A stretch of 64,000 nt of DNA from Candidatus Binataceae bacterium (GCA_963722605.1 CAVRNO010000002.1:548090-612089), one strand, 5' to 3'; counted from the stretch's first letter, positions 18,155 through 57,413 are shown. Notes: a model not told the origin generated them from the letters alone. Translations and numbers: made by a program.

Positions 18155-19090
18155 ATGTCTGGAGCCGTTGGCTTTACGCCTATCTACGCGCCCGGCGGGT
18201 CGACCGGCAAGGGAAGGTTTCCGAGAATGACCTCAGGTAAGCCAAAAACACTTTGGGAACGCATCGATCCTGGAACCATCGTTGCTTTACTCGCTTTGGT
18301 GCTTACGCAGCTACCGTCAGTGAGCGTGATGTGGGTGGCGGTTTTCAAACCACGGCTTGTGACAGTATCCTTTCCGAATAGTTCATTCTATGCGGATCAA
18401 ACGCTCGGCCACAGCTCAGTCGTGATCCAACTTTCGCTTCATAACGATGGTGGGCGGGTCGCAACAATTGGGCAACTCAACGCTATCCTGAGTGGACCCA
18501 ACGGCTTCTTGGTGGCCCTCAAGGCTGATGAGTATGTAGGACTCGAGAACCAAACTTCGATTCCCCTTGCCCATCCGATGTCATCGATTGTACTCAGGCC
18601 TGGCAACCGCTGGGACGCGATGGTCGGTTTCCTAGAGAAGATGTCTGACCAAGCGCAGTCCGACGTCGCTCGACTCCAAGGCGCCATGTTGCAGCCAGCC
18701 TTTAGCGCGCCATCTTTCACACCACAGACGCCAGTACCGCCGGCCAAACCAATTGTGAGCGAGGCAATTGACATGTTTAATCGCTCATTCAAGTGGAAAG
18801 CCGGGACTTACCAGCTATTCGTCCAAGTCAATTCGGAAGACGACGACAAGCAAATCGGACTGAACGGGGTTGAGTTCACGCTATCCCCGGAAGGCGTTGA
18901 GCAAATGCATTCAGTGGTTAATGGATACCAGTTCGGTAGGCTGAACAATCCGGGCAATCCAGCGACCAGCGCGCTGGTGCGCGCGCATGTCCTGAGCGCC
19001 AACGACGCGCTGGCCAAGTTTCGCGCGCTTCCGACGCCTTCCAATGCTGAATCTGGCGATATGCCTCTACAGCCAGCCAGCGGCATGTAA
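18155..19090 (+). CDS. hypothetical protein with an N-terminal TM anchor
   Basis: ORF with a hydrophobic segment (IVALLALVLTQLPSVSVMWVAVF). I did not recognise a domain. ~53% GC. Confidence 0.45.
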   Translation: MSGAVGFTPIYAPGGSTGKGRFPRMTSGKPKTLWERIDPGTIVALLALVLTQLPSVSVMWVAVFKPRLVTVSFPNSSFYADQTLGHSSVVIQLSLHNDGGRVATIGQLNAILSGPNGFLVALKADEYVGLENQTSIPLAHPMSSIVLRPGNRWDAMVGFLEKMSDQAQSDVARLQGAMLQPAFSAPSFTPQTPVPPAKPIVSEAIDMFNRSFKWKAGTYQLFVQVNSEDDDKQIGLNGVEFTLSPEGVEQMHSVVNGYQFGRLNNPGNPATSALVRAHVLSANDALAKFRALPTPSNAESGDMPLQPASGM

Positions 19091-19602
19091 TTACCCTCGC
19101 ATGAGAAACCGCGTTTAGTTGATCAAGGCCGTCCGGGGCGAAGAGGCGCGGGTGAGGGTGGCGACCCTTCAGGAGCCTCGGAGCCGCTCTCCTCAGTAGA
19201 ATAAGGCGCGAGGAATATCCTAGAAGATTGCCTTTCAATGTTTATGTCCATTATTTCCGTGACGCGGGACCCTGCGGCGCTTACTGACGGGCTAGCAGAC
19301 TATGCGGCGGCGTGATTGCCCCAAGCGCTACAGCCTTCACGCTGTTCGCTGCCCACGGGCGAATAGTTCGAGCTTGGGCAGGGCCTGGTACATGCGCTAA
19401 ATCATTTCGTAGAGGAGTTGGGGTCCTTCACTGCGCGCCGCAGAACCCTCGCCTACCGGCCGCAAGGCGGCCGGCCTCCTGTCCCGTGAAGTAACGGGCG
19501 AGGTGAGAATCGGACTCGCACACGGCGTAGAAAAGGATTCGGGGTCGCTGTGCTTCGGTTGGGATGACCCAAGAAACGCAGACCGCGCGGGCGGAGTTAC
19601 TA

Positions 19603-26847: not shown

Positions 26848-27813
26848 ATGAAACTCAGGTTCACACAAATCCACGTCACGATTCTGAACTTCGTCCTGGT
26901 CGGAGGACTGGCGATCGTTCTGGCCATGTGCGTGCGGGACGTCATCGAGCGCAGCGTTTCAAACGAATCCGACGTTCCCGCCGTGTCGTCGGCCACGCCC
27001 AAGGCCGCGGGCGGCCTACGCGCGCGCGCCTACTACGACGCGATCGTCAAGCGTGACATCTTCAACGAGGTCCCGCAGGAGACCGGACCGGCGCCGGTGG
27101 TGGAAGAGGACCTGAATATCAAGCTGATCGGCACTTCGCTGCTGAGCAAATCGAAACCGTACGCGATAATCGAGGATCAGGCGAACAACGAATCGCTCTA
27201 CCAGGTGGGAGAGGACATCCCGGACGCGGGCAAACTGGTAGGCGTCGAAAACGGCCGCGCGATCATCGACCGCGGCGGCCATCGCGTCGCGCTTGAGATC
27301 CCCGCCGCCGACCTTCCCCAAGCGCCGCCTTCCGTCGTGGGCGGGCCGATTAAGCCGCCCCGGTTCAGAGGCCTTCCCGCTGCCATGCGGCGCGGGTTGC
27401 CCGGATTTCACCATCCTGGGCGCGGTAATAACGACGCCAAAAACGACGACAGCAGCGCCAGCAAGACCAAACTTGAGCTGAAGAAAGTCGGCCCCGGAAA
27501 ATTCCAGGCCAGCCGCGCCGACGTTCAGCAGACGATGGAGAATCCTGCCCAGTTCTTCTCGCAGATGCGCGCGATGCCCCATTTCGTCAACGGCAAGACC
27601 GACGGCTTCTCGATCTCCCAGGTCGCGCCCGGCTCCGTCTTCGACCAGCTAGGGCTGCAAAGCGGTGACCTGGTCACCTCGATCGACGGCAAGCCCGTGA
27701 CCAATCCAATGCAGGCGATGGTCCTGATGCAATCGATGAAAACCCAGTCGGCGCTCGACCTCACGATCAATCGCGGCGGCGCGCCGACCTCCGTTCATCT
27801 CGATCTGCGCTGA
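26848..27813 (+). CDS. GspC-like membrane-anchored PDZ-domain protein (type II secretion protein C-like)
   Basis: N-terminal TM helix, an HR-like segment (KPYAIIEDQANNESLYQVGEDIPDAGKLVGVENGRAIIDRGG) and a C-terminal PDZ-like segment (VAPGSVFDQLGLQSGDLVTSIDGKPV). No other gsp genes are in the window. Confidence 0.5.
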   Translation: MKLRFTQIHVTILNFVLVGGLAIVLAMCVRDVIERSVSNESDVPAVSSATPKAAGGLRARAYYDAIVKRDIFNEVPQETGPAPVVEEDLNIKLIGTSLLSKSKPYAIIEDQANNESLYQVGEDIPDAGKLVGVENGRAIIDRGGHRVALEIPAADLPQAPPSVVGGPIKPPRFRGLPAAMRRGLPGFHHPGRGNNDAKNDDSSASKTKLELKKVGPGKFQASRADVQQTMENPAQFFSQMRAMPHFVNGKTDGFSISQVAPGSVFDQLGLQSGDLVTSIDGKPVTNPMQAMVLMQSMKTQSALDLTINRGGAPTSVHLDLR

Positions 27814-35448: not shown

Positions 35449-35706
35449 TTATCTATAAACCTCGCGGCGGTGAGCGACGCGGACTACCAATACGACCAGG
35501 ACCTGGTCCCGGATCTGATAAACGATTCGATAATCGCCGGCGCGAATGCGCCACAGGTCGTGCGGCCCCTTGAGCTTCTTTGCGCCAGCCGGACGCGGCT
35601 CGCCTGCGAGCGCGTCGATGCGCGGGCGCAACTTGAGCTGAATTTCGCGCGCGAGTTTGCGGAACTCGCGCTCCGCGCCCGGCGAGAACTCGACCGCATA
35701 GGCCAT
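35449..35706 (-). CDS. relE: type II toxin-antitoxin system RelE/ParE family toxin
   Basis: RelE/ParE-like sequence (LWRIRAGDYRIVYQIRDQVLVVLVVRVAHRREVYR). Confidence 0.8.
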   Translation of the reverse strand: MAYAVEFSPGAEREFRKLAREIQLKLRPRIDALAGEPRPAGAKKLKGPHDLWRIRAGDYRIVYQIRDQVLVVLVVRVAHRREVYR

Positions 35707-35713
35707 CGCGTTG

Positions 35714-35995
35714 TCAGGTGAGGCCGAGTTCCTTTTTTATCCGCGGCCACGGAGTCGTTCCCTTGCGTTTGACCTCGCGGATCGCCGCCCGGGCCGCCTT
35801 CAAGTCGTCGCGGTCCTCCATCTCTTCAAGCAGCGCGATATCCTCGATCGGCACTACCGCCGCCAGCGGCCGGCTGCGGCGGGTCAGCAGAATCCGGTCC
35901 TTGCCGTAAGCAACGCGGTTGATAAGGTCGGCGAAGTGCTGGCGCGCCGCAACCGTAGTGATCGCTTCACTGGAGGATTTTTTCCTGGCTGGCAT
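35714..35995 (-). CDS. phd: type II toxin-antitoxin system Phd/YefM family antitoxin
   Basis: Phd/YefM-like N-terminus (ITTVAARQHFADLINRVAYGKDRILLTRRSRPLAAVVPIEDIALLEE). It is immediately upstream of the toxin with an 8 bp gap. Confidence 0.75.
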   Translation of the reverse strand: MPARKKSSSEAITTVAARQHFADLINRVAYGKDRILLTRRSRPLAAVVPIEDIALLEEMEDRDDLKAARAAIREVKRKGTTPWPRIKKELGLT

Positions 35996-36088: not shown

Positions 36089-38300
36089 TTAGCTGCCCAA
36101 CTGGGCGCGATTGCTCCAATAGTCGGCCGCGGTCCGGAATGCCGCGGCGGCGCGCTCGAAACTGTCGAACACGACCAGGCCGCGCGCGCGCGCAAGCTCC
36201 TTGCCCCGCGCCACGATCGCCTCGAGGTGGGCCGGATGCATCACGACCGCAAACGGCCTGGCCGAGCGTCCGGCAAAATCGGCCAGCTTGTCGAGCAGGC
36301 CGGTGAGTTCATGCTGGTGCGTGGCCCATCGCGACGCGCGCAGGCCGGTGCCAATCTCCAGCACGACTGCGTCGATCACCGGATCGCGTTCGAGGATATC
36401 GAGCATGCGATCGAGATTGCCCGGATCGTGCCCGAAGCCGATGGTGCCGCCGGCGTCGAGCGGATTGCGGTAGCTGCCGCCGATTATGTTGAAGAACGTC
36501 TTCAGCTCGTCGTAGGAGGACTCCGATAGCGCGGGAATCTCGAGCCCCGCGGCGGCAAAGGTGTCGGTGATTACCACCGATTGGCCGCCGGTCATCGCGA
36601 CGAGCCCCATCCGCCTGCCGCTGAGGCGCTTGGCGCGGGCGAACAGCTCGACCGCATCCAGCATCGCGTCAAGGCTCGCCACTTCGACCGCGCCGCTTTG
36701 GCGCACGACGGTGCGCCAGGTCGCCTGGGGAGTCGCGAGCGATCCGGTGTGGGAAAGCGTCGCGCGCGCGCCCGCCTCGGTCACCCCGCCCTTCCAGATG
36801 ACCACGGGATGACGCTCGGCGGCGTGGCGAACGCTGTCGAAGAAGCGCCGCCCGTCGCGCACGCCTTCGATATACATCCCGATGACGGTGGTCGCCGGGT
36901 CGGCCGCCATCAAGTCGATATAGTCGGCGGCCTCGAGCACCAGCGCGTTGCCGATCGAGGCGGCCTTGTTGACTTTGATTCCGCGGGTTGGCGCCTGGAG
37001 GCAGAAGTTGATCGTGTGGGTGCCGCTTTGCGAGATGAAGCAGACGTCGCCGGCGTCGCCGACTTTTTCCTCGGGAAAATTGCACAGTCCGGCCGCCGGG
37101 CTGTACAGGCCCATGCAATTGGGGCCGACCAGGGCGATTTCCGAGTTGATCGCGATTTCGCGAAGCTCGGCTTCGAGCCGGATTCCGGGCTGCTCGGAGG
37201 TCTCGGAAAATCCCGAGGTAAAGAATCCGATCGAGGCGACGTGATTGGCGACGCAATCCTTCAAAATTCGCGGCGCGATCTGCCGCGGGACGGCGCTGAC
37301 GGCGTAGTCGATTGGCTCGGTGATTTCCGCCAGGCTCTTGCGATTGTCCACGCCCATCGCTTCGATTCCGGCAATCTCGCCCGGATCGATTTGGACCGAG
37401 TAGAGCTTGCCCTTGAGATGCGCCATCGAGCGCAGCCACATGTAGCCGTTCATGAGTTTGTCGCCGATGACGACAACCGCGCGCGGGTTGAAGGCTCCTT
37501 TAAGATTTTTGAGCCGCGCCGCACGATGGGGGTCCGGCTGCGGCGTCTCGCCGGCGGAGACGGCGAGCACGATTCGCGCGTCGAGGATGGCGAGACCGTC
37601 CTCGTACGCGACGACCGGATTGAGATCCATCTCGGAGATTTCCGGATGGGTCGCGGCGATTCCCGAGACGGTCTGGAGGAGCGAGACGATCGCGTCGATA
37701 TCGGCGCCGGGCTGACCGCGGACGCCGCGGAAAATCTGAGCGCCGCGCAGCCGCGCCAGCATCGAGGCCGCCTCGCGCCCGCCAATCGGCGCGAGCGCCA
37801 GCGTGGTATCGTTCATCACTTCGACCAGCACGCCGCCCAGCCCCACCATCACCATCGCGCCGAATCGATCGTCGCGGTAGGTCCCTGCCAGAATCTCGAC
37901 ACCCGGCTTCGCCATCGGCTGCACGGCAACGCCCTCGAAGCGCGCGCCGCCGGCGCGCGCCGCAAGGTTGCGCGCGATGCGCTCGAACGCATCGCGCACC
38001 GCGCCCTCGCTGTCGAGATTCAGCTCGACGCCGCCGACCTCGGTCTTGTGACTCACATCCGGCGACAGCACTTTCAGCACCACCGGGAATCCGATGCGCG
38101 ACGCCGCCCGCGCGGCGTCGTCCGCAGTTGAAGCGGCTTCGGGCACTACCACGGGCAGGCCGAGCGAATGCAATATTCGCTTGCTCTCGATTTCCGTAAG
38201 CACGGTTCGTCCGCTGGAACGAACCGACGATATCAGCGAGGAAACGATGGGTTCAGTCACGCTTGTGGCGTATAGCAGAGCCGAGGAACTATTTGAACCG
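36089..38300 (-). CDS. ADP-forming acyl-CoA synthetase family protein (ATP-grasp + CoA-binding + CoA-ligase domains)
   Basis: ATP-grasp segment (ILHSLGLPVVVP...GFPVVLKVLSPDVSHKTEVGGVELNL). It is followed by a CoA-binding N-cap (FNPRAVVVIGDKLMNGY) and a CoA-ligase/flavodoxin-like region. The true start is uncertain within 38250..38440. Confidence 0.7.
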
Positions 38301-38526
38301 CCGGGGACACCAGCATGGTGCATGCGCCGCCCGGCGGGCTTCGGAGCAGACTCGACTCCGCGCGGCCTCAGTGAAGTCGAAGTGTTTTGCGTAGAGAAAG
38401 ATCCGGGATTCTTCGCGTCGCTCAGAATGACACAAAACAAGAGCGCGCCAGCGCGTATCGCTGCAGCACCGGCATCCGGCTATGCAGAGCGCTCCCTTTA
38501 GGGGAACCGATAGCTGCGCGAACTTT

Positions 38527-39966
38527 CTATTTTGAGAGGCGCAGGAGAATCTTCGACGCGATAATCTGGAACACCGAGTTTAGCTGCGCAGAGGTGGCCG
38601 CAAACACCGCCTGTCCCTGCGGCAGGCTGGGACTGAAGATGGGGCTGGCGGGATCGTTGGCGACCTCCTGGAGGAATTGCTCGGCGGTCGGCTGGCCGGT
38701 GATCGCGCTTCCCATTCCGATCGAGTAAACATAGACATTCTGGGCCAGCAAGCCGGTAACGCCGGCGGTGGACACCTGGACCGAGCGATACATTGCCTCG
38801 CTGTATTGCGATGAGGTGCCGCCACAATAGTTGATATTGCTAAGCGACTCGCTCGCGCCGATATACAGATCCGGAAAAGTCGTCGGGAAAGGCAGCTTCG
38901 TAGATCCCGTAGATCCGCAGTAGGACGATGGTGCGCTACAGCTACCGCTTGCGGTGCAGGTAGTGGGATCAAAGAAACAAACAGGCTGGCTGCTATTTGT
39001 GGCGCATGGCGTGTTCCTGCACAAACCCAGAGCTTCATCGCCCACATCGCAGCCGCAGTATATGAGGTTGGTTTTGTTCGAACCCGCAGGACAGCCTGCG
39101 CTGGTACGCGTAGAGCCGGAACAAAGCAGGCAATCCTGGATTACATTTGGCCAGCCGTCGGTGAAAAATACCAACACCTTCAGCACGTTCTGGCCCGCCG
39201 GCACCAGCGCGAACTGGTTGGCGATCTGAGTCTGTCCGGCCAGCAATCCCGCTTGTGAGTTAGTGAAGTTGGTTGGCCAGCTTATTGAGGAGACCGCATT
39301 GTCAACCGGAGTCTTGAGGGGCTGCGTCATGGCAAGATTGACATGTGAGGATGTTCCAAAAGTGACCACCGAGGCGTAATCGACCGTATCGTTGTTGTCG
39401 GGGTCGAAGTCAGCGATGAAGTTTTCGACGGCGGGCGCGAGCGCCGCCTCTCCGCCATTGGATCCCATGGAAGACGATATGTCGAGCACCAGCGCCATTA
39501 TCATCGGATTGCGCATGGCCGTGGCGCTTTCCGTGATGCTCAACGTCTTGTAGTTGGATCCCAGCACGCCGAGGAAGTAAGTGGGGAGCGCGGCGGTGGC
39601 GGTGACGGTGACCAGCTTGTTGTTGTTGGCGTCTGTGCTGAAGTTCACGACGGCCCCCGAAGTAACCCCGAGGCCGGGCAGTGATTTATAGTTGACGGTG
39701 AACACCGTCTGCGCGACCGTCGTAGCCGTAGCCGTCCCCTCGTTAAAGTTGCGCATCGCCGCAAGTGCGGCAGCATCCACCGATTTGGAGAGGGTCGTCT
39801 TGGTGAGGTAGGCCATGCCAAAGTCGATCGAGAGCCCGATGAACATGATCAGGACAGGAATGGCGAGAGCGAGCACATAAAAAATTTGCCCACGCTCATT
39901 TTTTCTAATTTTCCCTTGATCCAAGAGATTCACCTCATCCTTGTCCCTAAAAATATGTGTAGTCAT
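38527..39966 (-). CDS. TadG-like pilus-associated protein with von Willebrand factor A domain and Cys-rich insert
   Basis: Pseudopilin-like N-terminus (ERGQIFYVLALAIPVLIMFIGLSIDFG). vWA MIDAS motif (VLDISSSMG). A ~70 aa segment holds 16 Cys. GC is lower than the background. Confidence 0.7.
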   Translation of the reverse strand: MTTHIFRDKDEVNLLDQGKIRKNERGQIFYVLALAIPVLIMFIGLSIDFGMAYLTKTTLSKSVDAAALAAMRNFNEGTATATTVAQTVFTVNYKSLPGLGVTSGAVVNFSTDANNNKLVTVTATAALPTYFLGVLGSNYKTLSITESATAMRNPMIMALVLDISSSMGSNGGEAALAPAVENFIADFDPDNNDTVDYASVVTFGTSSHVNLAMTQPLKTPVDNAVSSISWPTNFTNSQAGLLAGQTQIANQFALVPAGQNVLKVLVFFTDGWPNVIQDCLLCSGSTRTSAGCPAGSNKTNLIYCGCDVGDEALGLCRNTPCATNSSQPVCFFDPTTCTASGSCSAPSSYCGSTGSTKLPFPTTFPDLYIGASESLSNINYCGGTSSQYSEAMYRSVQVSTAGVTGLLAQNVYVYSIGMGSAITGQPTAEQFLQEVANDPASPIFSPSLPQGQAVFAATSAQLNSVFQIIASKILLRLSK

Positions 39967-40532
39967 ACAGCATCGAGGGCAAAGCGATCCCGGCGCCTTT
40001 GCTCGGCCAGTTCTGGGTCAGTGTCAGAAGCGGCGTGAGCGGCGTGTATTGGTAGTAATATCTCCGTAACGTACGTGGACTGACTCGCCTGGAGTGTGCC
40101 CGGGGTGAACGCAGCCGGCATAGTGGCCGTATTTTTCGCTCCCGTCGCCGTCGAGTACGTCCCTACCCTGCTTGCTGCCGCAACCCCCCCCGACGATGCC
40201 TGGCCGGTCATCGTGTAGGTTGGGCTTGCGGTGGTGCCCGTGTTGGTGACTTGCGTAATGATTACTTCGCCGGATTTGGCTATATTCAGGCCGGATTCAC
40301 CGGCTATCACGGCTGCCACCGCATTTGGCAAAGTGTCATTGCGTGAGGCCAGATTCGAGCCTTGCCGGGTCAGCTCGGCCATCACCTGCAGCGTGTACAG
40401 CGCGCGGCCGAAGTCGATCGAAGCGGTCACGAGTATGAGGAGCAGGGGCACTATAAGCGCAAACTCCGTCATCGCCTGGCCTGACCCGTTGGCTGTGAGC
40501 CTTTTCCGCGCTGAGCGATAAAACAGTGACAT
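39963..40532 (-). CDS. TadE/TadF-like minor pilin
   Basis: TadE N-terminal domain (GQAMTEFALIVPLLLILVTASIDFGRALY), Thr/Ser-rich C-terminus. Confidence 0.7.
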   Translation of the reverse strand: MSLFYRSARKRLTANGSGQAMTEFALIVPLLLILVTASIDFGRALYTLQVMAELTRQGSNLASRNDTLPNAVAAVIAGESGLNIAKSGEVIITQVTNTGTTASPTYTMTGQASSGGVAAASRVGTYSTATGAKNTATMPAAFTPGTLQASQSTYVTEILLPIHAAHAASDTDPELAEQRRRDRFALDAV

Positions 40533-40544
40533 ATTCTCTATCCC

Positions 40545-41126
40545 CTAGTCGGTCTGGGATGGATTAAACGGCTCGTTGACGAAGGTGGTGCTCGAGGTGA
40601 AGGTGAAAACGCCCCCGGTAAAAAGCTTTGAAAGGCCCGGCGTCATCAACGGCAAGGTGGAGGTGAGCGAGATCGTGACGGTGTAGCCCGGCCCCCCCGC
40701 CGCGCCAATAGTGCCACTTGGGTTCGCAGGGTTGTAGCACGAGGCTGTCACTGAGGCGGGTGGAGTACTGCAAATTGAAACGTTCGAGGCGTTCACGCCG
40801 GGTATGGCGATTTCGTTTTGAATCTGTTGAATGATCGACAATATGCGGTTCCCGCTACCGGTTTCCTGCCCGGTGGACGCATACCGTCCTCCATCATCCA
40901 CCGCCTGCTGCACGTTGAGTTGCGCAAACATGAGCCAACCGAAGTCCATGACCGCAAAGAGCAGGAAAAGGAACAATCCCAACACCATGGCGTATTCCAC
41001 CATGGTCTGACCCTTCGCCAATCCGAACATCGACGCTCCCCGCTTAAGGGGCGCCATCCGGCCAGTCTTGTCCAGCGTGCGGCCGCTAAGCTTACCCATG
41101 CGCTCCCCCAGCGTCAGCATCGGCAC
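40545..41126 (-). CDS. TadE/TadF-like minor pilin
   Basis: TadE N-terminal domain (GQTMVEYAMVLGLFLFLLFAVMDFGWLMF). The start is possibly the internal MFGLAKGQ (~41030). Confidence 0.7.
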   Translation of the reverse strand: MPMLTLGERMGKLSGRTLDKTGRMAPLKRGASMFGLAKGQTMVEYAMVLGLFLFLLFAVMDFGWLMFAQLNVQQAVDDGGRYASTGQETGSGNRILSIIQQIQNEIAIPGVNASNVSICSTPPASVTASCYNPANPSGTIGAAGGPGYTVTISLTSTLPLMTPGLSKLFTGGVFTFTSSTTFVNEPFNPSQTD

Positions 41127-41193
41127 GCATCGGCTGTGCCAGCCGAAATGTCTTTATTTTTAGGCCCTTTTTGCCGGAAATTACTGCGAGTTA

Positions 41194-41227
41194 GCGCCGT
41201 TGCTACGCCGAGACGTAGCAACGGCGC
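41194..41227 (-). terminator. perfect 14 bp stem hairpin between flp and downstream tadE-like genes (attenuator/terminator candidate)
   Basis: GCGCCGTTGCTACG - CCGAGA - CGTAGCAACGGCGC, read from the sequence. No U-tract. A second 10 bp hairpin at 41347..41376 (GGGCTGAGCG/CGCTCAGCCC) lies right after the flp stop. Confidence 0.4.
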
Positions 41228-41397
41228 GACATTCCCGCCAGCTTTAATGCAAGGATGAAGGGCTGTCATGTGCGCTACCCCATGCTTTATACATCTCCGG
41301 CAGGCGAAACGGTAGCTGCGCCCAATATACATTCGCGCCGATCCGGGGGCTGAGCGTCACCCTGTCCGCTCAGCCCTGATCCGGCCGGCACACGCCA

Positions 41398-41568
41398 TTA
41401 GAGTTGGCTGTCCACGCTGTTCAGCACGCTCTTGATGGTCGTACCCATCGTCTGATAGCCGGCAAAGACAACGACCGCAACCGCCGCGAGAATCAGCGCG
41501 TATTCAGTCATCGTCTGGCCCCGGGCAAATTCGTCGGCCTTCACATACAGTTTCCTGATCAGATCCAT
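41398..41568 (-). CDS. flp: Flp family type IVb pilin
   Basis: MDLIRKLYVKADEFARG leader, G/QTMTEY prepilin motif, hydrophobic helix, ~56 aa mature length. It lies inside the longer 90 aa ORF. Confidence 0.75.
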   Translation of the reverse strand: MDLIRKLYVKADEFARGQTMTEYALILAAVAVVVFAGYQTMGTTIKSVLNSVDSQL

Positions 41569-41670
41569 TTTGGTGTCTCTCCGTCCGTTTATTTCGTTCA
41601 AACGACCATCCGCGGGAATAGAAATCCCCGCGCCCTCTGAAAGCTTACTCATTGTAGAAAAACTGCTCAT

Positions 41671-42043
41671 TTCGGCTCAAACGACTAATCCATCGGCAGA
41701 GATTCGCTCTCGACCGATATTTGCTCTTGATTGGTTACGTTTACTTCAGACCATGAACTAACGTCTATGACCAATTGCGTTATTATCCGCACGCTTCGTG
41801 CCTATGTCAAGAGCCTTGCGCCCTCATAAGTTCTACTCAGCTCGAAATTTTACCTATTCACTCTGGTAAAGCGGTTCAAGACGAATAAAGGCGTTAAGGC
41901 GCGTGGTATTATTATTTTCGGCCGTAGTCTGCCGATTAGCGCTACTAAGTGCTGATTTGGTAGCGAGAGAGAAATAGAAAGTAGTGCAGCAATCGTTTGG
42001 ATTGGTGTAGAGTAGCTATAGCGACAGATGTTTCGACGCTTTG
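41671..42043. promoter_or_regulatory. AT-rich (~45% GC) intergenic region upstream of flp
   Basis: Compositional contrast with the background. The likely flp promoter and the hisA-side boundary of the inserted cassette. Confidence 0.4.
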
Positions 42044-42781
42044 CTAGCCGATAGCTGCGGCTAACGCGTCGCTCAGGCTGAAATTTCCTTCGTACAGCGC
42101 CCGTCCCACCACGACGCCCACGACCCCAGCCTCGAATCGCGTCCGAAGAGCGCGAATGTCGTCGAGACTCGCCACGCCACCCGACGCGATGACGGGGATA
42201 CGGACGGCGCCGGCGATTTCCGCCATCCGCGCCGGATCGACGCCCACCTGCGCGCCGTCGCGCGAGATGTCCGTCAGGATCGCAGCCGCGACCCCTGCCG
42301 AACGAAACCGGTTCGCCGCCTCGGCTAGCGTGAGCTGGCTCGTTTCGACCCACCCTTTGACGGCAAGCCGGCCATCGCGAATGTCGATCGAGCCGAAGAC
42401 CCTCCCCGGGAACTCGGCGCAGGCGCGGCGCACCAGCTCGGGATCGAGGAGTGCGGCCGAGCCAATCGAGACCCGGTCGGCCCCGCGCGCGAATGCGGCG
42501 CGAACCGCCTCGATAGCGCGCAGCCCGCCGCTCACGTCGATAGCGCATCGGACGGCCGCGCGGATTTTCGCGATCGCTTCGATATTTTGCGGCGTGCCGG
42601 CAATCGCGCCGTCAAGATCGACGATATGAATCAGCGACGCGCCCGCATCCTCGAAGCGACGCGCGGTCTGGCCGGGATCGGTGCCATAGACGGTCGCCCG
42701 GTTCATGTCGCCGCGCAGCAGGCGCACGACCTGGCCGCGCTTCAGGTCAATCGACGGAATAACGGTGAAGCTATCGAACAA
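42044..42781 (-). CDS. hisA: 1-(5-phosphoribosyl)-5-[(5-phosphoribosylamino)methylideneamino]imidazole-4-carboxamide isomerase
   Basis: HisA (beta/alpha)8 motifs (VIPSIDLKRGQVVRL, IASGGVASLDDI). Confidence 0.9.
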   Translation of the reverse strand: MFDSFTVIPSIDLKRGQVVRLLRGDMNRATVYGTDPGQTARRFEDAGASLIHIVDLDGAIAGTPQNIEAIAKIRAAVRCAIDVSGGLRAIEAVRAAFARGADRVSIGSAALLDPELVRRACAEFPGRVFGSIDIRDGRLAVKGWVETSQLTLAEAANRFRSAGVAAAILTDISRDGAQVGVDPARMAEIAGAVRIPVIASGGVASLDDIRALRTRFEAGVVGVVVGRALYEGNFSLSDALAAAIG

Positions 42782-46251: not shown

Positions 46252-47052
46252 CTACGGGTGGATTGCGGGCAAACTCATTCCGTGAGCATCAATATGAACT
46301 GTCCGAATGATCGAAAGCAGTGGGAACTTTCCGTCGTGCGGCGGCGGAACAGATTCAGCGTAGTCACTTCCCCCCATGCCCGTGGAAATCCTGCAGGGGC
46401 GAGGCTGCAATATGTTTATCGCCCAGTGCCATGCCGCGCGGCCACAGTCGATCCGCAGCAGAGCCTCATGCCCGTCTAACTGCATGGGGCTGAGCGACGA
46501 GCAGACGGGGCGGCCTGTCTCCGGGGCAGTCTTAATTTCATCTTCGTGAAGTCGCGACTGAAATTCAAACGCCTTCTTGATTTTCTCGGCCGCCACTTCT
46601 GGAGTCGTGCTCTCACTATGGACGAGAACCCGCAGCACGAGCTCGCCCTGGGTGACCGGAGTGTCACCGACCAGATCGACTACCTTGGCCAAGTCTGACG
46701 GCGGATTGTCGAGACCGAAGGGATCCAAGACAGCAGGAGTCCGGAACTCTCTCTCGTTCACCCGCAGCGACGGCGGGTAACGAAATGAAAGCCCTGTGGC
46801 TGGGTCGTGGAACTCTCGCCAACCACTTGTGCCGATCCGCGCCTGTTCGGTGGGAACCGCAGCCGGCATCGCGGTCGCCGCGACCATCTCCAGCGGTTCT
46901 GGGCCCGCGTCAAACCGGATGCCCGTCGGGCCGGGGTATAAGATCAATGCGGCTGGGCGTTCAGCCGCTTCGACTTGCTGCGGACCATTGCACAGTGCCG
47001 CACAAATGGCGATGCAGAGAAAGAAAGCGGCGGATGTGTGTCCAAATATCAT
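46252..47052 (-). CDS. hypothetical secreted protein (266 aa) inserted between prmC and its duplicated 3' end
   Basis: Signal peptide (FFLCIAICAALC). No recognised domain. The 3' part is lower in GC. Confidence 0.5.
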   Translation of the reverse strand: MIFGHTSAAFFLCIAICAALCNGPQQVEAAERPAALILYPGPTGIRFDAGPEPLEMVAATAMPAAVPTEQARIGTSGWREFHDPATGLSFRYPPSLRVNEREFRTPAVLDPFGLDNPPSDLAKVVDLVGDTPVTQGELVLRVLVHSESTTPEVAAEKIKKAFEFQSRLHEDEIKTAPETGRPVCSSLSPMQLDGHEALLRIDCGRAAWHWAINILQPRPCRISTGMGGSDYAESVPPPHDGKFPLLSIIRTVHIDAHGMSLPAIHP

Positions 47053-47063
47053 TGCTTTCGTAC

Positions 47064-47942
47064 TTAAACCCTTCGCGCGCGCACGACGCGCGGATGCCCC
47101 GCGAGATCGTTTATCACAGAGACGACCCGCAAGCCCGCTTCCTCGATCAGCTTCGCCACCGCCGCTTTCGTTGCATCCCCCTCCCCCACTTCCACGATCA
47201 GCTCGCCATCGCTCGCAAGATGCCGCGGCGCGCCCGCTGCAATTCTGCGAAAGATGTCGAGCCCTCCCGCTCCCGCGCTCAGCGCAACGCGCGGCTCGAA
47301 GGCGCGCACCTCGGGTTCCAGCGCGGCGATCTCCGCGTCATCCAGGTAAGGCGGATTGGAGACTATCAGCTCGAAAGACTCAAGCGCCGCTCCGCCGTCC
47401 AGGACGTCGAAGCAGTCGGCGCGCCGGAACGTCACCCGATCCTCGACCCGATGCCGCCGCGCGTTGCGCGACGCGATCGCAATCGCGCCGGCGGAAATTT
47501 CCACTGCCGTCACGCGAACGCGCCGAGCGTTGACCGCGATTGCGATAGCGATTGCCCCCGACCCGGTGCCGATGTCGAGCACGCGCGCGTCCGGCGCTCC
47601 GGCGATAAACTTGAGCGCCGCGTCAACGACTAGCTCGGTCTCGGGCCGCGGAATCAGGACCGCCGGACTTACCTCGAAATCGAGCGAGTAGAATTCCTTG
47701 CACCCCAGGATGTACGCGACCGGCTCGCGTTTTTCGCGCCGCACGATCATCGTCTCGAATTTGTCTAGCGTCGCGGGCGATAGATCGATCGAACCCGTGA
47801 TAGCGGCTTCGCGCGAGACTCCCGCCGCCGCGGCAATCAGAAGTTCAGCGTCGAGCCGCGCCGATTCGATGCCGCTTGCGGCGAGCCTGCGCGCGGCCTT
47901 GTCTATCTCCTCCAACGCGCGCCGCGCGGGCACCCGGTTCAT
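47064..47942 (-). CDS. prmC: release factor glutamine N5-methyltransferase
   Basis: HemK/PrmC motifs (VLDIGTGSGAIAIAIA, IVSNPPY). It immediately follows prfA. Confidence 0.85.
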   Translation of the reverse strand: MNRVPARRALEEIDKAARRLAASGIESARLDAELLIAAAAGVSREAAITGSIDLSPATLDKFETMIVRREKREPVAYILGCKEFYSLDFEVSPAVLIPRPETELVVDAALKFIAGAPDARVLDIGTGSGAIAIAIAVNARRVRVTAVEISAGAIAIASRNARRHRVEDRVTFRRADCFDVLDGGAALESFELIVSNPPYLDDAEIAALEPEVRAFEPRVALSAGAGGLDIFRRIAAGAPRHLASDGELIVEVGEGDATKAAVAKLIEEAGLRVVSVINDLAGHPRVVRARRV

Positions 47943-47949
47943 GGCGATG

Positions 47950-49011
47950 CTACGCGCTGAGCGCCTGCTCCTGATCGTAGGCCGCCAGCGCGTCGATAAT
48001 CGGATCGATTTCGCCGTCGAGAAACTTGTCGAGCTGATGAATCGTCACGTTGACGCGATGGTCGGTCACGCGCGATTGCGGAAAATTGTAGGTGCGGATG
48101 CGCTCGGAACGGTCGCCCGTACCCACCATCGAACGCCGCGTCTGCGCGATCTTCGCCTGCTGCTCCGACTGCGCCGCCTCGAGCAGCCGAGCCCGCAGGA
48201 TCTTCAACGCCTTCGCTTTGTTCTTGTGCTGCGACTTTTCGTCGCGTTGGATTATCACCATGCCGCTCGGGATATGCGTGATGCGCACCGCCGAGTCGGT
48301 GGTATTGACGCTCTGGCCGCCCGGTCCCGACGCGCGCATCACGTCGATTCGCAGGTCCTTGGCTTCGTTGATATTGACCTCGACCTCGTCCGCCTCGGGC
48401 ATCACCGCGACGGTGACCGCGGAGGTGTGGATGCGCCCCGAGCCTTCGGTTTCAGGTACGCGCTGCACGCGATGCACCCCGCCTTCGTACTTGAGCCGCG
48501 AGTATGCGCCGCGTCCGCTCACCAGCGCGATCACTTCCTTGATTCCGCCAAGCCCGGTCTCGCTCAGGCTGAGCGACTCGATCTTGAACCCGTGGCGCTC
48601 GGCGTAGCGCGTGTACATCCGATACAGGTCCCCGGCAAACAGCGAGGCCTCCTCGCCGCCGGTTCCGGCGCGGATTTCGAGGATCACGTTCTTTTCGTCG
48701 TTGGGATCGCGCGGCGTGAGCAGCTCCTTGAGTTTGTCCTCGACCGCGGCAAGATTTTTCTGCAACGCCGGCATCTCGGCCTTGGCCAGCTCGCGCAAGT
48801 CGGCGTCGTCGCCATCGAGGATCGACTTGTGGCCCGCGATCTCGTCGGCGATGCGGATATATTCGCGGGCGCAATGCGCCGCCTCGGAAAGCTGCGCGCG
48901 CTCTTTGGCCAGCCGGGCGTATTCGCGCTGATTGCCGAGCGTGGCCGGATCGCTGAGCTTGCGCTCCAGCTCCGCCACCCGCTCTTCTATCGCGCTTGCC
49001 TTATCCAGCAT
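47950..49011 (-). CDS. prfA: peptide chain release factor 1
   Basis: GGQ motif (RASGPGGQSVN), PxT-region, full-length RF1 similarity. Confidence 0.9.
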   Translation of the reverse strand: MLDKASAIEERVAELERKLSDPATLGNQREYARLAKERAQLSEAAHCAREYIRIADEIAGHKSILDGDDADLRELAKAEMPALQKNLAAVEDKLKELLTPRDPNDEKNVILEIRAGTGGEEASLFAGDLYRMYTRYAERHGFKIESLSLSETGLGGIKEVIALVSGRGAYSRLKYEGGVHRVQRVPETEGSGRIHTSAVTVAVMPEADEVEVNINEAKDLRIDVMRASGPGGQSVNTTDSAVRITHIPSGMVIIQRDEKSQHKNKAKALKILRARLLEAAQSEQQAKIAQTRRSMVGTGDRSERIRTYNFPQSRVTDHRVNVTIHQLDKFLDGEIDPIIDALAAYDQEQALSA

Positions 49012-49192
49012 CGGATTCTTTGCACGCTTGTACTCATCTGGGCGTTAGTCTGTACGTTCGCGTGGCAGTGAGAAGGATCGCCTGGGCGAAATGGGGCAAC
49101 GGTAGTGGAAAGTCCCTGAAAAAGCCGTGCCGGTAGATTCTCCCCCGCGCACCCGGGTGCGTAGCGCACCGCAGGCGGCGGGAGTTGCTATG

Positions 49193-49432
49193 CTACTTCT
49201 CGGCGGCGGTTGCCGCCGTCTTTTCCGCCGGCTTCTTGATGCCGTACTTGCGATTAAACCGCTCGACCCGCCCCGCGGTATCGACCAGGCGCTGCGTGCC
49301 GGTGTAAAAGGGGTGACACTTCGAGCAGACCTCGACCTGCAACTGCTTGAGCGTCGAGCGCGTTTCGAAGGTGTTGCCGCACGCACAGACGACTGTGCAG
49401 CGACGGTATTCAGGATGGATTCCAGCTTTCAT
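49193..49432 (-). CDS. rpmE: 50S ribosomal protein L31
   Basis: MKAGIHPEY start, CxxC...CxxCH zinc ribbon (CACG...[10 protein letters not shown]). Confidence 0.85.
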
Positions 49433-49459
49433 TTTTGCTTCTCGAACTCTGTTTCCTCT

Positions 49460-51058
49460 TGCGTCAGAGGATACCATCGGGAGCTATCGCACACAATTCG
49501 CGCGCCGCGACCGCCCTTTCGGGCTTTTCGGCTCGCAATCGCCGTGGCTGCCTCGACTGCGGTTATTTTAATCACAATATTCCCGATTGCCAGCTTCGCC
49601 GCGCCAGCCGCCACGGCTGCGCCAACGACCGGCTTCGCGCCCGATGATCGAACGCTTTTCGCGCCGATCGTCGATCTCGCGCCGCCCGGCCCCGCGCGCG
49701 CGTCGCGTGCGATCGCAATCCTGAACCGGCAGCTCGATTTCCAGCGCAAGATCTCGTTCCACCCCACGCTTGCCCCGGCGCTCCAGGATGTCCTCGATCT
49801 GCTTCCGCCGCGCCAATCGACGATGATCCGCGCCGCCGCCCTCTACTCGAAACCGTCGATCCCGTGGCGCGACGAGCCGGACGGTACGCATCAGATTTGC
49901 GTCGCCGGACGGCCAAGTGACGGCGAGTATTTGTACACGCTGTCCCCCGGCTGGGATCGGCCGGAGGAGCCCGCGCAATTTTCGGGCGTGTTCGGCCTCA
50001 AGCCCGGCGCCGATTCCTCTCCCACCGACATTTCGAGCGTCACCGGCACGCTCGCCGGCGAGCTGATGATCGATACCTACGGTCTCGGCGGGCTGGTTGA
50101 CGCCGCGGCCGATGCGATCCGCGAGGTTCACGGCGATCTGAGACCGCCGTGGGATTCTTCGCCCGGCGCATTCAACCATCACGACCGAGCCGCGCTCGAC
50201 AAATTCCACCGCCAGATGCCGCATCTTGCGGCGAAGTTCGACCACTACTTCAAATTCAACAACCTGCTCGACGAGTTCAATTCGCCCGCGGGCCCCGTCG
50301 TGCTGCTGAACGTCGATGCCGAAGTTCGCCAGGACGCGCTCAGGAAATATCCGTTGCTGTACGATTTCTATCGCAAAGTCGTACCCGCGGTGACGGCGAA
50401 ATCCGCTATCCTGGATTCGCACGGAAATTTCTGGGTGCGCGAGGGCTTCGACCACGGCCGCATCCACTTCACCATGATGATTCGGGGCGGACTGCTCACG
50501 CCGTTCAACGCCGCGATGCAACCGGCCGGCGACGGTATTGCGCTCAATCGAATCGCGCGCGGCGGTTACCGGACGTTGTCGTCGGCGCAGGTGACCAGTC
50601 TCGCGATGAATTTCGGGCTGGCCAACGTTGGATTTGCAACCGACTACCGCCGCGACCCGGGCTCGGTGACGTTCGTCAACCGGATGGACGCGGTCCCCCA
50701 AATGATCGCGCCACCCGGCGTGCATCAGGTGATGGACTTGATCGCGGGGGACTTTCTGCGCGCGCTGGCTACCGAAAGCGGCGGCATGAACGTAAGCCTC
50801 AGCTCGCGGATGCTCCCCAGCGGGATGTACGATTTCTCGGGCGGCGTCACCGCGCAGTTGAATTACTCGCCCGCGCTGGAGTTGCTCGCGCGAATCGGCG
50901 ATGCGATCGCGAACAGGCACAACGACCAGGTTCGCGCCGAGGAACGCGCATTCGGCGAGGAACTGTTCGACGCCTTCGTCGCCGATTACAATGATGCGCG
51001 TGGGGCAATTGTCGCCCTGGATTCGGATAAAGACAGCCGACAGGAAAAATCCAAATGA
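49460..51058 (+). CDS. hypothetical secreted protein (~530 aa)
   Basis: Signal-peptide-like segment ([29 protein letters not shown]). No recognised domain. The start is uncertain; the ORF opens at 49127, but its upstream part overlaps rpmE. Confidence 0.5.
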
Positions 51059-51756
51059 GCCGCGCACGACGCAAACGGTTTTTCACCGCGATGCTCTTTG
51101 CCGCCGCAATTCTCACCGCGGGATGCGCCGCCGAGGACAAGCCGCCGCCGAGCATGCCTGACGCCGGCCCGCAAGCGAAGCTGCTCAGCGATTTGTCGGC
51201 CGTCTCCGACGCCCCCGTCGGTCCGCTCGTCGCCAATGCGGTTCCTGCCCCCGGCGAAGGACTGTTACACGATCAAGCCGCGGTCTCGGCCGGGCCCCGC
51301 ACCTTTGAGACCGAGCCCGGCATGTCGCGCCAGATCGGCACCGAAAGAACTCCCAGCACGGTGCGCCTGCTGAACGCGAAAGCCGCCAAGTTCGGGATTT
51401 TTTCCACCGCAATACTCGATCGCCTCTATGCGCACCTCAGCATCGCCGAAAAATCCGAGGAGATTTCGCAAACCAGGCTGCCCACCGAAATCAAGCCCGT
51501 CGTCATCACCGCAATCCTTGACAAAACCGGCAAGCTCACCGAACTCATCCTCGAGCAACACTCCGGCAAGGCGAAAATCGATCTGATGATGCTCGAGGTC
51601 TGCAAGAAGGGTCTCTGGTACGAGAATCCTCCCGCCGCCGCGCTTTCAGGCGACGGCAACTACAAGCTGACTATCCGCATGAAGCTCGAGAACTACGGCA
51701 CCGTGGACGAGCGTCATTGGACCTTTATCACCGACCTCGCACTCGGCATCGGCTAG
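51055..51756 (+). CDS. hypothetical lipoprotein
   Basis: Lipobox (LTAGC). Its start overlaps the upstream stop (ATGA), which suggests translational coupling. Confidence 0.5.
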   Translation: MSRARRKRFFTAMLFAAAILTAGCAAEDKPPPSMPDAGPQAKLLSDLSAVSDAPVGPLVANAVPAPGEGLLHDQAAVSAGPRTFETEPGMSRQIGTERTPSTVRLLNAKAAKFGIFSTAILDRLYAHLSIAEKSEEISQTRLPTEIKPVVITAILDKTGKLTELILEQHSGKAKIDLMMLEVCKKGLWYENPPAAALSGDGNYKLTIRMKLENYGTVDERHWTFITDLALGIG

Positions 51757-55480: not shown

Positions 55481-55704
55481 AATCGTGGCCTCAGAGTTTG
55501 CTGAAACACAGGGATAATGCCTTCGGCGGTGATATCGCCCACGGCAACCCCCTCAATATCAAGTTCCGCAATCGCGGGGAACGGGATGCTCCGTCGCTCT
55601 GCCGTCGAACGTGTGCCGTTTGCCGAGAGCGTTTTCCAGCAAGCCGCCGCGCGATATTATATTTGCGACTGGTTCACTTGAATGCGTATGCGAAGGGCGG
55701 CGTG

Positions 55705-57018
55705 AATTCACCTCTAGCTCTACTCAAAAGCGACTCCCTGAACCGCCGCGAACTGACGTTCAAGGCGCTTGCGGGCCTGGTCGGCGGCGCGATCGGATGG
55801 CTGCCGGTCGAGATGGCCTCGCACAACCACACGCTGACCGAGCAGATGACTTCGGCCCAGGCATTGGCCGCGACCATTTCGATGTGCGTGCTTTCGGGAT
55901 TGATCGGTGGATTTATACTTGCCGCCGAAGGGCAGCGCCTTGATTTCAACCGGGATGCGCAACTTCGCTTTGCCCGCGGTTTCGCCATCTGTGCTTTCCT
56001 GGCCTACTTCGGCAACGGATGGTCCAACGCTTTGTTCACCGCGATGCTGAACGCCGGCGGATGGGGTGTGGGCCACCAAGGGTCGGCGCTCTTCCTGGTC
56101 CTGGGCCGGGTGATGAGCTGGACGGTGCTGGGTGCGGTGCTCGGCGCCGGCGTGGGCATAGCGACGCTTTCCCCGCCCAATATCCTGAAAGGCGGCTTCG
56201 GCGGCGTGGTCGGCGGATTTCTCGGCGGACTCACCTTCGATTTCATCAACCTGATTACCGGCGGCGGCCTGTTCGCGCGGCTGGTGGGGCTCAGTTCAAT
56301 CGGTCTTGCGATTGGATTGTTCATCGGGCTGGTGCAAGAGCTGACCAAGGCGGCGTGGGTCACGGTCGAGCAGGGACGGCTGCGCGGCCGCCAGTACCGG
56401 ATCGAAGGTGCCCGCGCGTCGATCGGCCGCGCCGAGGAAAATCCGGTCGGCCTGTTCGGCGATCCAGCCGTGCAGCCGCGGCACGCCGTAATCGAACGGC
56501 GCGGCGCCGACTACGTGATCAGGAATCTCGCGGTCCAGGCCGGCACCTTCGTCAACGGCAATCGAATCGAAAGCGTTGACCTCCACGACGGCGATCGAAT
56601 CAACATCGGAGGCTACCAAATCCTGTTCCATCTGCGCGCGACGCCGGCGCAGGCCCGCCAACAAGCGTCGCTCGCCGTCGATACGGCGAGTCAAGCGCGC
56701 GTCGCCCCGCGGATGGCCGCGGCCAACGCGCAGATCGAGGGGCCGAGCCTGGTCGATGCGTCGGGGCAGTCCTACCCCGTCCGCACCGGTGCGATTACCC
56801 GCATCGGACGCGCGCTCGACAACGAAATCGTGGTCGGCCATTCCTCGGTCTCACGCCATCACGCGAGTATCGAACATTCGGACGGCGTGTTCGCGGTGAA
56901 AGACCTCGACAGCCAGAACGGAACCTTCGTCGGCAACCGGCGCGTGACCGAGCCAACGCGCGTGAGCGACGGCGACGCGCTCAGATTCGGCGACGCGCAG
57001 TTTACCTTCCGTGGCTGA
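55705..57018 (+). CDS. polytopic membrane protein with two C-terminal FHA domains
   Basis: Multiple hydrophobic helices, then two FHA cores (IGRAEENPVGL...HAVIERRGADYVIRNL...NGTFVNG and IGRALDNEIVV...SVSRHHASIEH...SQNGTFVGN). The GTG start (VNSPLALL) was read from the sequence. Confidence 0.7.
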   Translation, partial: NSPLALLKSDSLNRRELTFKALAGLVGGAIGWLPVEMASHNHTLTEQMTSAQALAATISMCVLSGLIGGFILAAEGQRLDFNRDAQLRFARGFAICAFLAYFGNGWSNALFTAMLNAGGWGVGHQGSALFLVLGRVMSWTVLGAVLGAGVGIATLSPPNILKGGFGGVVGGFLGGLTFDFINLITGGGLFARLVGLSSIGLAIGLFIGLVQELTKAAWVTVEQGRLRGRQYRIEGARASIGRAEENPVGLFGDPAVQPRHAVIERRGADYVIRNLAVQAGTFVNGNRIESVDLHDGDRINIGGYQILFHLRATPAQARQQASLAVDTASQARVAPRMAAANAQIEGPSLVDASGQSYPVRTGAITRIGRALDNEIVVGHSSVSRHHASIEHSDGVFAVKDLDSQNGTFVGNRRVTEPTRVSDGDALRFGDAQFTFRG

Positions 57019-57353
57019 AGCGGATTTCGAGAAACCGAGGTTTTGCTCGCGATGCGGTCAGCCGATCGTCGTCGCCGACGCGAGCTTCTGCAAATCGTGC
57101 GGCGCGCCGGTGACTCGTTTCGCGATGCTGCGGCGCGGTCGCAGGGTTCAGCCCGATGCTGGCGCTCGTGCTAAGCATCGTGCCGGGCGTCGGTCAGATT
57201 TATCGGGGCAAACCGTTGCGGGGAATCTTGTGGTTTTTCGGCGTATCGTTGGCGTACGGCGCGGGACCGCCGTTCGGCTTCCTGATGCATCTGATATGCG
57301 CCGCCAATGCAGCCTTCTCGGATACGATGCGCGGGGACATGCTCGCCCGATAA
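57011..57353 (+). CDS. zinc-ribbon membrane protein, apparent frameshift near 57135
   Basis: The N-terminal CxxC...CxxC ribbon (CSRCGQPIVVADASFCKSCG) is in ORF 57011. The TM segment with GVGQIYRGKPLRGILWFF is in ORF 57156..57353. Confidence 0.45.
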
Positions 57354-57413
57354 ACATGAACACGCCGCCGGCTGCCGCAGAATTGAAGAAATGGTTAGAT
57401 TCCGATTGAACGC

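Follow-up and report, generated by a model that had tools for sequence, protein, structure and literature searches.

Why should a pilin gene and three genes for pilin-like proteins stand between hisA and an acyl-CoA synthetase gene, in a stretch of DNA that encodes no machinery to assemble a pilus? The question is raised by positions 38,527 to 42,043 of 64,000 nucleotides from a Candidatus Binataceae bacterium (GCA_963722605.1 CAVRNO010000002.1:548090-612089); this whole 64 kb stretch is called the window here. An initial annotation, made from the sequence alone, had read the block as an orphan Flp/TadE/TadE/TadG cassette that either relies on Tad machinery encoded elsewhere or forms a distinct adhesin module tipped by a vWA domain. 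We find that the block is a satellite pilin and tip operon and not a tad locus, as the machinery that defines a tad/cpa locus is absent from the 64 kb. The block probably encodes the filament subunit of a Tad (type IVc) pilus of the Binataceae (Binatota), together with its priming or tip complex.

Gene content and the Tad machinery

Listing of open reading frames (ORFs), together with Pfam matches above the gathering score, bore out the four consecutive minus-strand genes of the initial annotation: flp, tadE1, tadE2 and a tadG-like gene. These genes, and an insert in the last of them, lie as follows.

41398..41568, minus strand: flp, Flp/Fap prepilin of 56 aa (Pfam Flp_Fap, E=2e-10), with a 17-aa leader, the N-terminal motif G/QTMTEY and a 39-aa mature pilin
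40545..41099, minus strand: tadE1, TadE-type minor pilin of 184 aa (Pfam TadE, E=8e-13), with a 30-aa leader and G/QTMVEY
39947..40532, minus strand: tadE2, TadF-like minor pilin with G/QAMTEF, of 194 aa and ending LYDYTYF in its intact form
38527..39966, minus strand: tadG-like gene for a modular minor pilin of 479 aa, with an N-terminal pilin module and a vWA domain that carries a MIDAS (metal ion-dependent adhesion site)
38797..39144, minus strand: predicted disulfide-rich insert of the vWA domain (residues ~275-390), with 12 Cys, directly after the MIDAS Asp strand FFTDGWPN

The 56-aa Flp protein scored 40.7 bits against Flp_Fap (PF04964; cut-off 32.2). Its leader, MDLIRKLYVKADEFARG, ends in Gly and is followed by QTMTEYALILAAVAVVVFAGY..., so that the 39-aa mature form starts QTMTEY. 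Relatives have almost the same protein, from 1 to 3 tandem gene copies, and the Flp of the window is 64-78% identical to the products of flp genes in Tad machinery loci. Its start, ATG 41568, is preceded by a GGAGAG ribosome-binding site and is conserved in relatives; a 90-aa flp ORF was rejected as an over-extension, since conservation there is at the DNA level and indels are not multiples of 3. Both TadE-like proteins scored well above the PF07811 (TadE) cut-off of 22.9 bits, at 48.7 and 44.6 bits. For tadE2, the window's own ORF (39963-40532) gave an E-value of 1.3e-11, and the intact form from contig L001 gave 1.6e-11; the intact gene overlaps tadG by 20 nt. Orthologues of tadE1 occur in all loci, with ATG 41099 and a GGGGGAG ribosome-binding site conserved. 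We therefore placed the tadE1 start at ATG 41099 and not at GTG 41126, because the latter abuts a conserved promoter that covers 41127-41141 (see below).

The N-terminal segment of the TadG-like protein matched PF13400 (Tad; E=1.6e-10), and a VWA domain was also matched. Structure prediction, suggested in the initial annotation, gave an AlphaFold2 model with a mean predicted local distance difference test score (pLDDT) of 86.3 and a predicted template modelling score (pTM) of 0.79. This model contains a pilin module at pLDDT ~90, composed of a long helix (residues 14-72), a second helix and a 3-stranded sheet (101-152), and a vWA domain at residues 155-477. Its best matches among solved folds are the pilus-tip adhesins Mfa5, PilB, SpaC, RrgA and GBS104, and all five MIDAS residues (D162, S164, S166, T235 and D270; DxSxS...T...D) are invariant in 61 homologues. 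The modelled fold and the invariant MIDAS make the vWA protein a plausible tip adhesin, which is the half of the earlier proposal of an adhesin or metal-binding tip that held.

The metal-binding half did not. The protein has 12 Cys, not the 16 first counted, at residues 279, 282, 292, 304, 306, 316, 321, 330, 337, 343, 350 and 381, and family members have 4, 6, 8, 10 or 12. C282, C306, C316 and C343 are universal, whereas the pairs 337-350, 321-330 and 279-292 co-occur perfectly among homologues and 304-381 nearly so. Because Cys residues are gained and lost in pairs, this pattern of substitution points to six disulfides in the insert, added as modules, and a metal-binding cluster was rejected on account of the pairwise co-occurrence.

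As the initial annotation had stated, no Tad machinery or prepilin peptidase was found in the window. Pfam detected no T2SSE, T2SSF, secretin, CpaB/RcpC, TadZ or A24 peptidase among its ~58 ORFs, and tblastn of the 64 kb with Binataceae TadA, TadB, TadC, TadZ and secretin sequences found nothing. As a separate observation, a lone GspC-like protein (T2SSC and PDZ; 26848-27813, plus strand) is encoded between the genes for a glutamate-cysteine ligase of family 2 and a GNAT acetyltransferase, with no other type II secretion genes in the window.

We compared the block with its relatives. TadG homologues numbered 318 at E <= 1e-5, those with names coming from Candidatus Binataceae, and a genome scan with a 61-sequence TadG profile returned 79 loci in metagenome-assembled genomes (MAGs) of Binataceae, Acidobacteriota and Verrucomicrobiia. 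The best TadG match in this genome collection is only 56% identical, and hence the collection does not include the species of the window. All 79 loci have the genes in the order tadE-tadE-tadG, which provides indirect support from gene order for a tip complex. CpaF, TadB or TadC lies within 10 kb in only ~9-10 loci with full flanks (e.g. L004/L008, L010 and L027); in L004/L008 the triad is ~5 kb from tadC-tadB-tadA-tadZ-secretin. Conversely, related machinery operons from metagenomes (CpaF 76-85% identical) are arranged flp(1-4)-...-secretin-tadZ-tadA-tadB-tadC, and almost none of them has tadE or tadG within 10 kb; only L107 and L109 gave weak matches. The presence of flp and absence of tadE and tadG in these operons imply that the machine keeps its own flp and that minor pilins are encoded in satellite operons. 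Judged by gene order, a remote tip cassette is the usual organisation in this lineage.

These results bear on the two readings first offered. That the block forms a stand-alone, vWA-tipped adhesin fibre with no need of a Tad machine is extremely improbable: the lack of machinery in the 64 kb window is the sole point in its favour, and all four proteins have class-III-type pilin N-termini. Type IV filaments built from pilins with such N-termini need a peptidase, a platform protein and an ATPase. Moreover, in relatives the same triad stands beside full machinery (tadZABC-secretin), and machinery operons are without a tadE and tadG of their own. Dependence on machinery encoded elsewhere is the reading that these relatives support. 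In the satellite operon that we propose, Flp would be the pilin, and TadE1, TadE2 and the TadG-like protein would be minor pilins whose N-terminal helices bundle, start the filament and stay at its tip, with the vWA domain of TadG facing outward. Processing and assembly would be carried out by a prepilin peptidase and a TadZ/A/B/C-secretin machine elsewhere in the genome.

The interval between hisA and acd

The block is flanked by hisA-hisB-hisD-murA on the flp side and by the gene for an ADP-forming acyl-CoA synthetase (acd; ATP-grasp_5, CoA_binding_2 and Succ_CoA_lig) on the tadG side. The order hisD-hisB-hisA-(0-3 flp)-tadE-tadE-tadG-(0-1 extra gene)-acd-...-S49 peptidase was found in at least 12 Binataceae genomes (L002, L014, L015, L019, L020, L022, L023, L031, L062, L068, L079 and L081). 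Flanking proteins in these genomes are 63-98% identical to those of the window, whereas for TadG the identity is 33-51%, L002 (90%) apart. The difference is clearest in L023, where HisB (94%), HisD (93%) and Acd (93%) are close to the window proteins but TadG is only 44% identical; this TadG has 6 Cys, and the locus has no flp and an extra dehydrogenase gene ahead of acd. In a neighbour-joining tree of 56 TadG proteins, the his-linked copies fell into at least 2 separate clades, mixed with copies from other contexts, and L015 contains one copy of each TadG type in tandem. Two cassettes occur in tandem or within ~15 kb in L015 (6145-11464), in L025 (6981-11275) and on the one contig that holds L014 and L037, and several MAGs have 2-3 cassettes on different contigs, with flp in 0 to 3 tandem copies. 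On these comparisons of homologous loci, the interval between hisA and acd is an old, fixed slot of the family in which the cassette content turns over.

The visibly lower GC content that had been reported was confirmed: it is 57.3% in the cassette, 63.2% over the whole window and 65-66% in the flanks, and only 2.3% of 3.1-kb segments are equally low. The AT-rich gap between flp and hisA was also found, with 45.5% GC upstream of flp; its reported size of ~370 bp was not, as the flp start at ATG 41568 leaves ~475 bp of non-coding DNA. Within the window, the deficit is mostly at first codon positions (GC1, 0.51 compared to 0.68-0.72) and so reflects amino-acid composition. A GC drop is common to every syntenic genome (54-56% compared to 60-66%). 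As far as composition can tell, low GC is a property of the cassette genes and not a sign of recent import.

A recently acquired, low-GC island between his and acd is accordingly a very improbable description of the block. In favour of an island are a GC content ~6-9 points under that of the flanks, the different setting of the cassette in the relative L006/L007, next to a gene for a terminase small subunit, and a toxin-antitoxin pair just past acd. Yet this slot is filled in 12 or more genomes, with hisA identities of only 63-91%, all syntenic genomes have the same GC drop, mainly at GC1, and no integrase, tRNA or direct repeats were found flanking the block. Thus, low GC and his and acd flanks, taken initially as marks of an oddly placed orphan, are normal in this family, where the arrangement is conserved.

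Two other features of the window touch on its composition and flanks. The toxin-antitoxin pair, on the minus strand, is made up of a toxin of the ParE family at 35449-35706 (Pfam E=7e-16) and an antitoxin of the Phd/YefM type at 35714-35995 (E=4e-12); the gene calls of the syntenic relative L002 do not include it. A second low-GC patch at 15700-19100 (plus strand) is the only other stretch of the window as low as the cassette; its ORFs at 16295-17911 and 18155-19090 have 55-58% GC and match no Pfam family above threshold.

Predicted transcription signals around flp and tadE1

The non-coding DNA on either side of flp contains five features that bear on how the block would be transcribed.

41782..41810, minus strand: sigma-70-like flp promoter, TTGACA-17 nt-GATAAT, with 11 of 12 consensus positions
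41569..41775, minus strand: flp 5' leader of ~205 nt, conserved, containing a GGAGAG ribosome-binding site and, at 41611-41632, a hairpin
41347..41376, minus strand: 10-bp GC-rich perfect stem-loop, 24 nt past the flp stop, with no U tract
41194..41227, no strand assigned: 14-bp perfect palindrome GCGCCGTTGCTACG-N6-CGTAGCAACGGCGC, candidate upstream activator site for an enhancer-binding protein
41127..41141, minus strand: predicted sigma-54 (RpoN) -24/-12 promoter, TGGCAC-AGCCG-ATGC, preceding tadE1-tadE2-tadG and overlapping a 7-bp repeat

Of 9 his-linked loci, 8 have the flp promoter in the corresponding position, as cTTGACAt-N17-GAgAAT. The leader that follows it is common to the window, L002, L014, L015, L020, L022, L062 and L081. 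In the alignment of these 8 loci, mean column identity is 68%, indels are not multiples of 3, and one 9-bp helix is retained through G-U and compensatory changes. Its shared features are a GTAACCAATCAAGAGCAA box, the covarying hairpin and ACGGACGGAGGGACAC ahead of the ATG; flp genes linked to machinery are without this ~205-nt leader. An Rfam scan of 38000-42500 found no family for the leader. The sole match, BTH_s1, was sub-threshold and was rejected (23.5 bits compared to a gathering score of 74).

Between flp and tadE1 lie three perfect inverted repeats, of 10 bp (41347-41376), 14 bp (41194-41227) and 7 bp (41130-41146), which the initial annotation had reported as hairpins following flp and proposed as the end of a pilin-specific transcript. 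We confirmed the repeats; only the first fits the proposed role. It is a candidate terminator or mRNA-stabilising hairpin, retained in the 90%-identical L002, with imperfect stem-loops at the same place in more distant loci. The other two appear to be DNA signals. Under a strict pattern, 8 loci have the core of the 14-bp palindrome, TGCYAC-N5-8-GTRGCA, upstream of the -24 element by 76-79 nt, and a looser pattern adds L006; the chance expectation is 0.002 per locus. The centre of the palindrome is ~95 nt upstream of the predicted sigma-54 start site, and an A-tract follows it. The 7-bp repeat coincides with the promoter sequence TGGCACAGCCGATGC (41141-41127), which has one mismatch, at -15, to the consensus TGGCAC-N5-TTGC. 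This motif is found upstream of tadE1 in 15 of 73 loci, compared to 0.007 expected per locus, and 12 of the 15 are at a fixed distance of 128-133 nt from the mature N-terminus of TadE1. To judge from the conserved motifs, activator site, bend and -24/-12 element make up the standard layout of an enhancer-dependent promoter. A 72-aa ORF at 41114-41332 was rejected as coding because what is conserved there is the DNA, with indels of lengths not divisible by 3.

The same evidence makes it improbable that all three repeats act as RNA hairpins to terminate or attenuate a transcript specific to the pilin. Such hairpins would agree with the folding of the flp-tadE1 region, which is better than that of shuffled versions (z = -3.55), with the position of the first stem-loop 24 nt past the flp stop and its retention in L002, and with the high pilin and low minor-pilin expression that is the norm (PMC12075869). 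Against them, the 14-bp repeat shows no covariation as a helix (0.139 compared to 0.164 in shuffles; the score was equalled or exceeded in 442 of 500). Conservation in this repeat is confined to the core half-sites, changes are non-compensatory and the spacer is variable, and the repeat is still present in L023, which has no flp. The 7-bp repeat coincides with the conserved TGGCAC-N5-ATGC promoter. Furthermore, a U tract is absent from all three repeats, and no canonical intrinsic terminators were found above chance in 38000-42500.

In place of one transcript with internal hairpins, we propose two transcription units. The first would run from the sigma-70-like promoter through the long conserved leader and flp to the strong stem-loop; the second would comprise tadE-tadE-tadG, transcribed from its own sigma-54 promoter. 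That promoter is probably activated by an NtrC-type enhancer-binding response regulator bound at the palindrome ~95 nt upstream. In many related loci, a gene for such a regulator (Response_reg, Sigma54_activat and HTH_8) adjoins tadC (L091, L098, L103, L104, L105, L107, L141, L143 and L163) or tadG (L008, L010, L013, L021 and L027), and these regulators are 59-93% identical to the L004 copy. Likewise, the first flp of machinery operons has a sigma-54 motif, TGGCACGAGAGATGC, ~200 nt upstream of its ATG (L094 ~1005, L095 ~4712 and L097 ~4556), with GTTGC-N6-GCAAC-N5-GTTGCA repeats ~80-100 nt further upstream. From these shared motifs we infer that the tip operon is co-regulated with the Tad machine through sigma-54. 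Such regulation would link the distant tip genes with the machinery locus, at which the regulator would be encoded and flp would also be sigma-54-driven. In the literature searched, coverage of which was incomplete, we found no description of sigma-54 control of a Tad minor-pilin operon.

Taken further, the slot between hisA and acd might be dedicated to the exchange of interchangeable Tad tip cassettes, which would be wired to a distant machine by a shared circuit of sigma-54 and enhancer-binding protein. We put this forward tentatively and with some doubt. If it is true, the binding of the pilus would be changed by swapping the disulfide-rich vWA head, with the machine left untouched.

Several observations weigh against a sigma-54-controlled tip operon that serves a remote Tad machine. 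The Tad machinery and prepilin peptidase of this genome were not located, and no CpaF match was on the same contig as a cassette; the metagenome CpaF scan gave 80 loci, none from the contig of a relative, Ga0181527_1000002. The 64 kb window contains no NtrC-type regulator gene, and this genome's own regulator was likewise not located. Across the whole window, sigma-54 matches numbered 2 compared to 0.6 expected, and 13 of 100 shuffles reached 2. This count is not significant alone, and hence the case for the promoter rests on conservation at orthologous positions. In the TadG model, insert residues 301-330 are of moderate confidence (pLDDT 62-79). In addition, G26-Q27 of TadG is at least 90% conserved, but the residue at +5 is V (L or V in homologues) and not E or F, which makes cleavage of TadG by prepilin peptidase uncertain. 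Finally, tadE2 is frameshifted in the window by an extra T at ~40058 that changes the last ~45 codons; if the frameshift is real, this copy may fail to produce a functional tip.

The last two points each suggest a different account. With no Glu or Phe at +5 after Gly-Gln, TadG may stay uncleaved and could be an inner-membrane-anchored assembly factor with a periplasmic vWA domain, which is the older view of Aggregatibacter TadG. We regard this account as quite unlikely. The model has a full pilin module of long helix and 3-stranded sheet, its best fold matches are surface pilus adhesins, and the vWA insert is fast-evolving and lineage-variable while the pilin module is conserved, as fits an exposed, ligand-binding head. 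This interpretation is further supported by published modelling and genetics that put CpaL (PMC12607857) and KilN (PMC12075869) at tips.

The frameshift, in turn, would be expected in a decaying copy that makes no complete tip complex, with another cassette in the genome doing its job. Relative to L001 and all homologues, L002 included, the extra T shifts the reading frame off the conserved tail, so that the C-terminus ...YYQYTPLTPL...LYDYTYF is replaced by unrelated residues, and the 2 or 3 cassettes of several related genomes make redundancy plausible. Exact-sequence look-ups of the frameshifted TadE2 and of hisA returned no record. However, the extra T is the only difference over 3169 bp from L001, an independent contig of that length with an intact tadE2 frame, as a single assembly indel would look, and the other genes, the promoters and the MIDAS site are all intact. 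The extra T could be either an indel of the assembly or a true mutation that inactivates the gene, and decay of the cassette is unlikely. We therefore retain the satellite operon of a Tad pilus as the best explanation of the block.

Elsewhere in the window are two further gene groups. Four consecutive plus-strand ORFs at 46785-51756 (282, 457, 643 and 233 aa) have no Pfam match even at E<0.05, and the last, of 233 aa, starts with a lipoprotein-like signal (..LTAGC). At 55498-58925, also on the plus strand, a gene for a Ser/Thr protein kinase follows one whose product has two FHA domains.

Comparison with known systems

These comparisons give a family-wide picture of how Tad pili are organised in the Binatota, an uncultured soil and peat phylum: machine and its flp would be encoded together, and tip minor pilins in satellite operons tied to them by sigma-54 promoters. 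They also add natural vWA/MIDAS tip pilins in which a ligand-facing insert appears to grow by disulfide pairs, and such paired growth is in line with a recent proposal that Tad pili become diverse by way of their tips. No new class of system is involved. The practical value lies in annotation (starts, the frameshift and promoters) and in regulatory sites that can be tested.

In its protein families the block agrees with the classical tad locus, flp-tadV-rcpCAB-tadZABCDEFG, of Aggregatibacter and others: Flp with G/XXXXEY, TadE/TadF of PF07811 and TadG of PF13400. In the classical locus, minor pilins are distal in a long machinery operon, whereas in the window they form a separate unit with its own predicted promoter, at least 22-25 kb from any machinery. 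A parallel to the proposed regulation is the control of pilA of type IVa pili by PilS-PilR and RpoN, which involves a sigma-54 promoter, an upstream activator site and an NtrC-family response regulator. However, PilS-PilR and RpoN drive the pilin gene pilA, whereas the sigma-54 signal of the window is on a Tad minor-pilin operon and, in relatives, also on machinery-linked flp; the his-linked flp, unlike pilA, has a sigma-70-like promoter. Like the TadG of the window, Streptococcus sanguinis PilB (PDB 7B7P) is a type IV minor pilin of modular build that includes a vWA domain. Its pilus is type IVa-like and comes from a Gram-positive bacterium; PilB itself is only 16% identical to the TadG of the window and has no Flp or TadE partners.

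The closest single protein is Caulobacter crescentus CpaL, in which a pilin-like N-terminal module is fused to a vWA domain with MIDAS (PMC12607857). CpaL is an orphan vWA/MIDAS minor pilin that has been modelled at the tip, and its prepilin peptidase site is given as G/A-X4-F/E (PMC12607857). Its best structural analogues, SpaC, RrgA, Mfa5 and PilB, are the same as those of the TadG of the window (PMC12607857). The two differ in setting and in the position of the variable part. The vWA protein of the window is encoded in one operon with two TadE partners and an flp copy, unlike CpaL with CpaJ and CpaK. By published description, CpaL has ~626 aa and a beta-rich domain that splits the vWA domain, whereas the TadG of the window has 479 aa and a Cys-rich insert after the MIDAS Asp strand.

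The Kil system of Myxococcus xanthus, with Tip clusters KilL/KilM/KilN and adapter Flp pilins KilK and KilO (PMC12075869), is the closest at the level of gene organisation. Its TadE/TadF/TadG-like triads lie in separate clusters, of which a genome has several, and combine a large, variable C-terminal domain with numerous predicted disulfides (PMC12075869); the tip3 cluster is associated with a gene for a Flp-type adapter pilin, kilO (PMC12075869), as the cassette is with flp. The likeness is one of architecture only; tip1-4 are reported to be restricted to Myxococcota (PMC12075869). KilN heads are not described as vWA/MIDAS (PMC12075869), unlike the TadG of the window, and Kil functions in prey killing (PMC12075869), whereas there is no evidence of predation for the cassette of the window. 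Neither the slot between hisA and acd nor a sigma-54 promoter is described for Kil (PMC12075869). Compared with CpaL and Kil, three aspects of the Binataceae cassette may thus be new: a slot between hisA and acd with turnover of its content, pairwise growth of a disulfide insert, and the sigma-54 wiring of a Tad minor-pilin operon.

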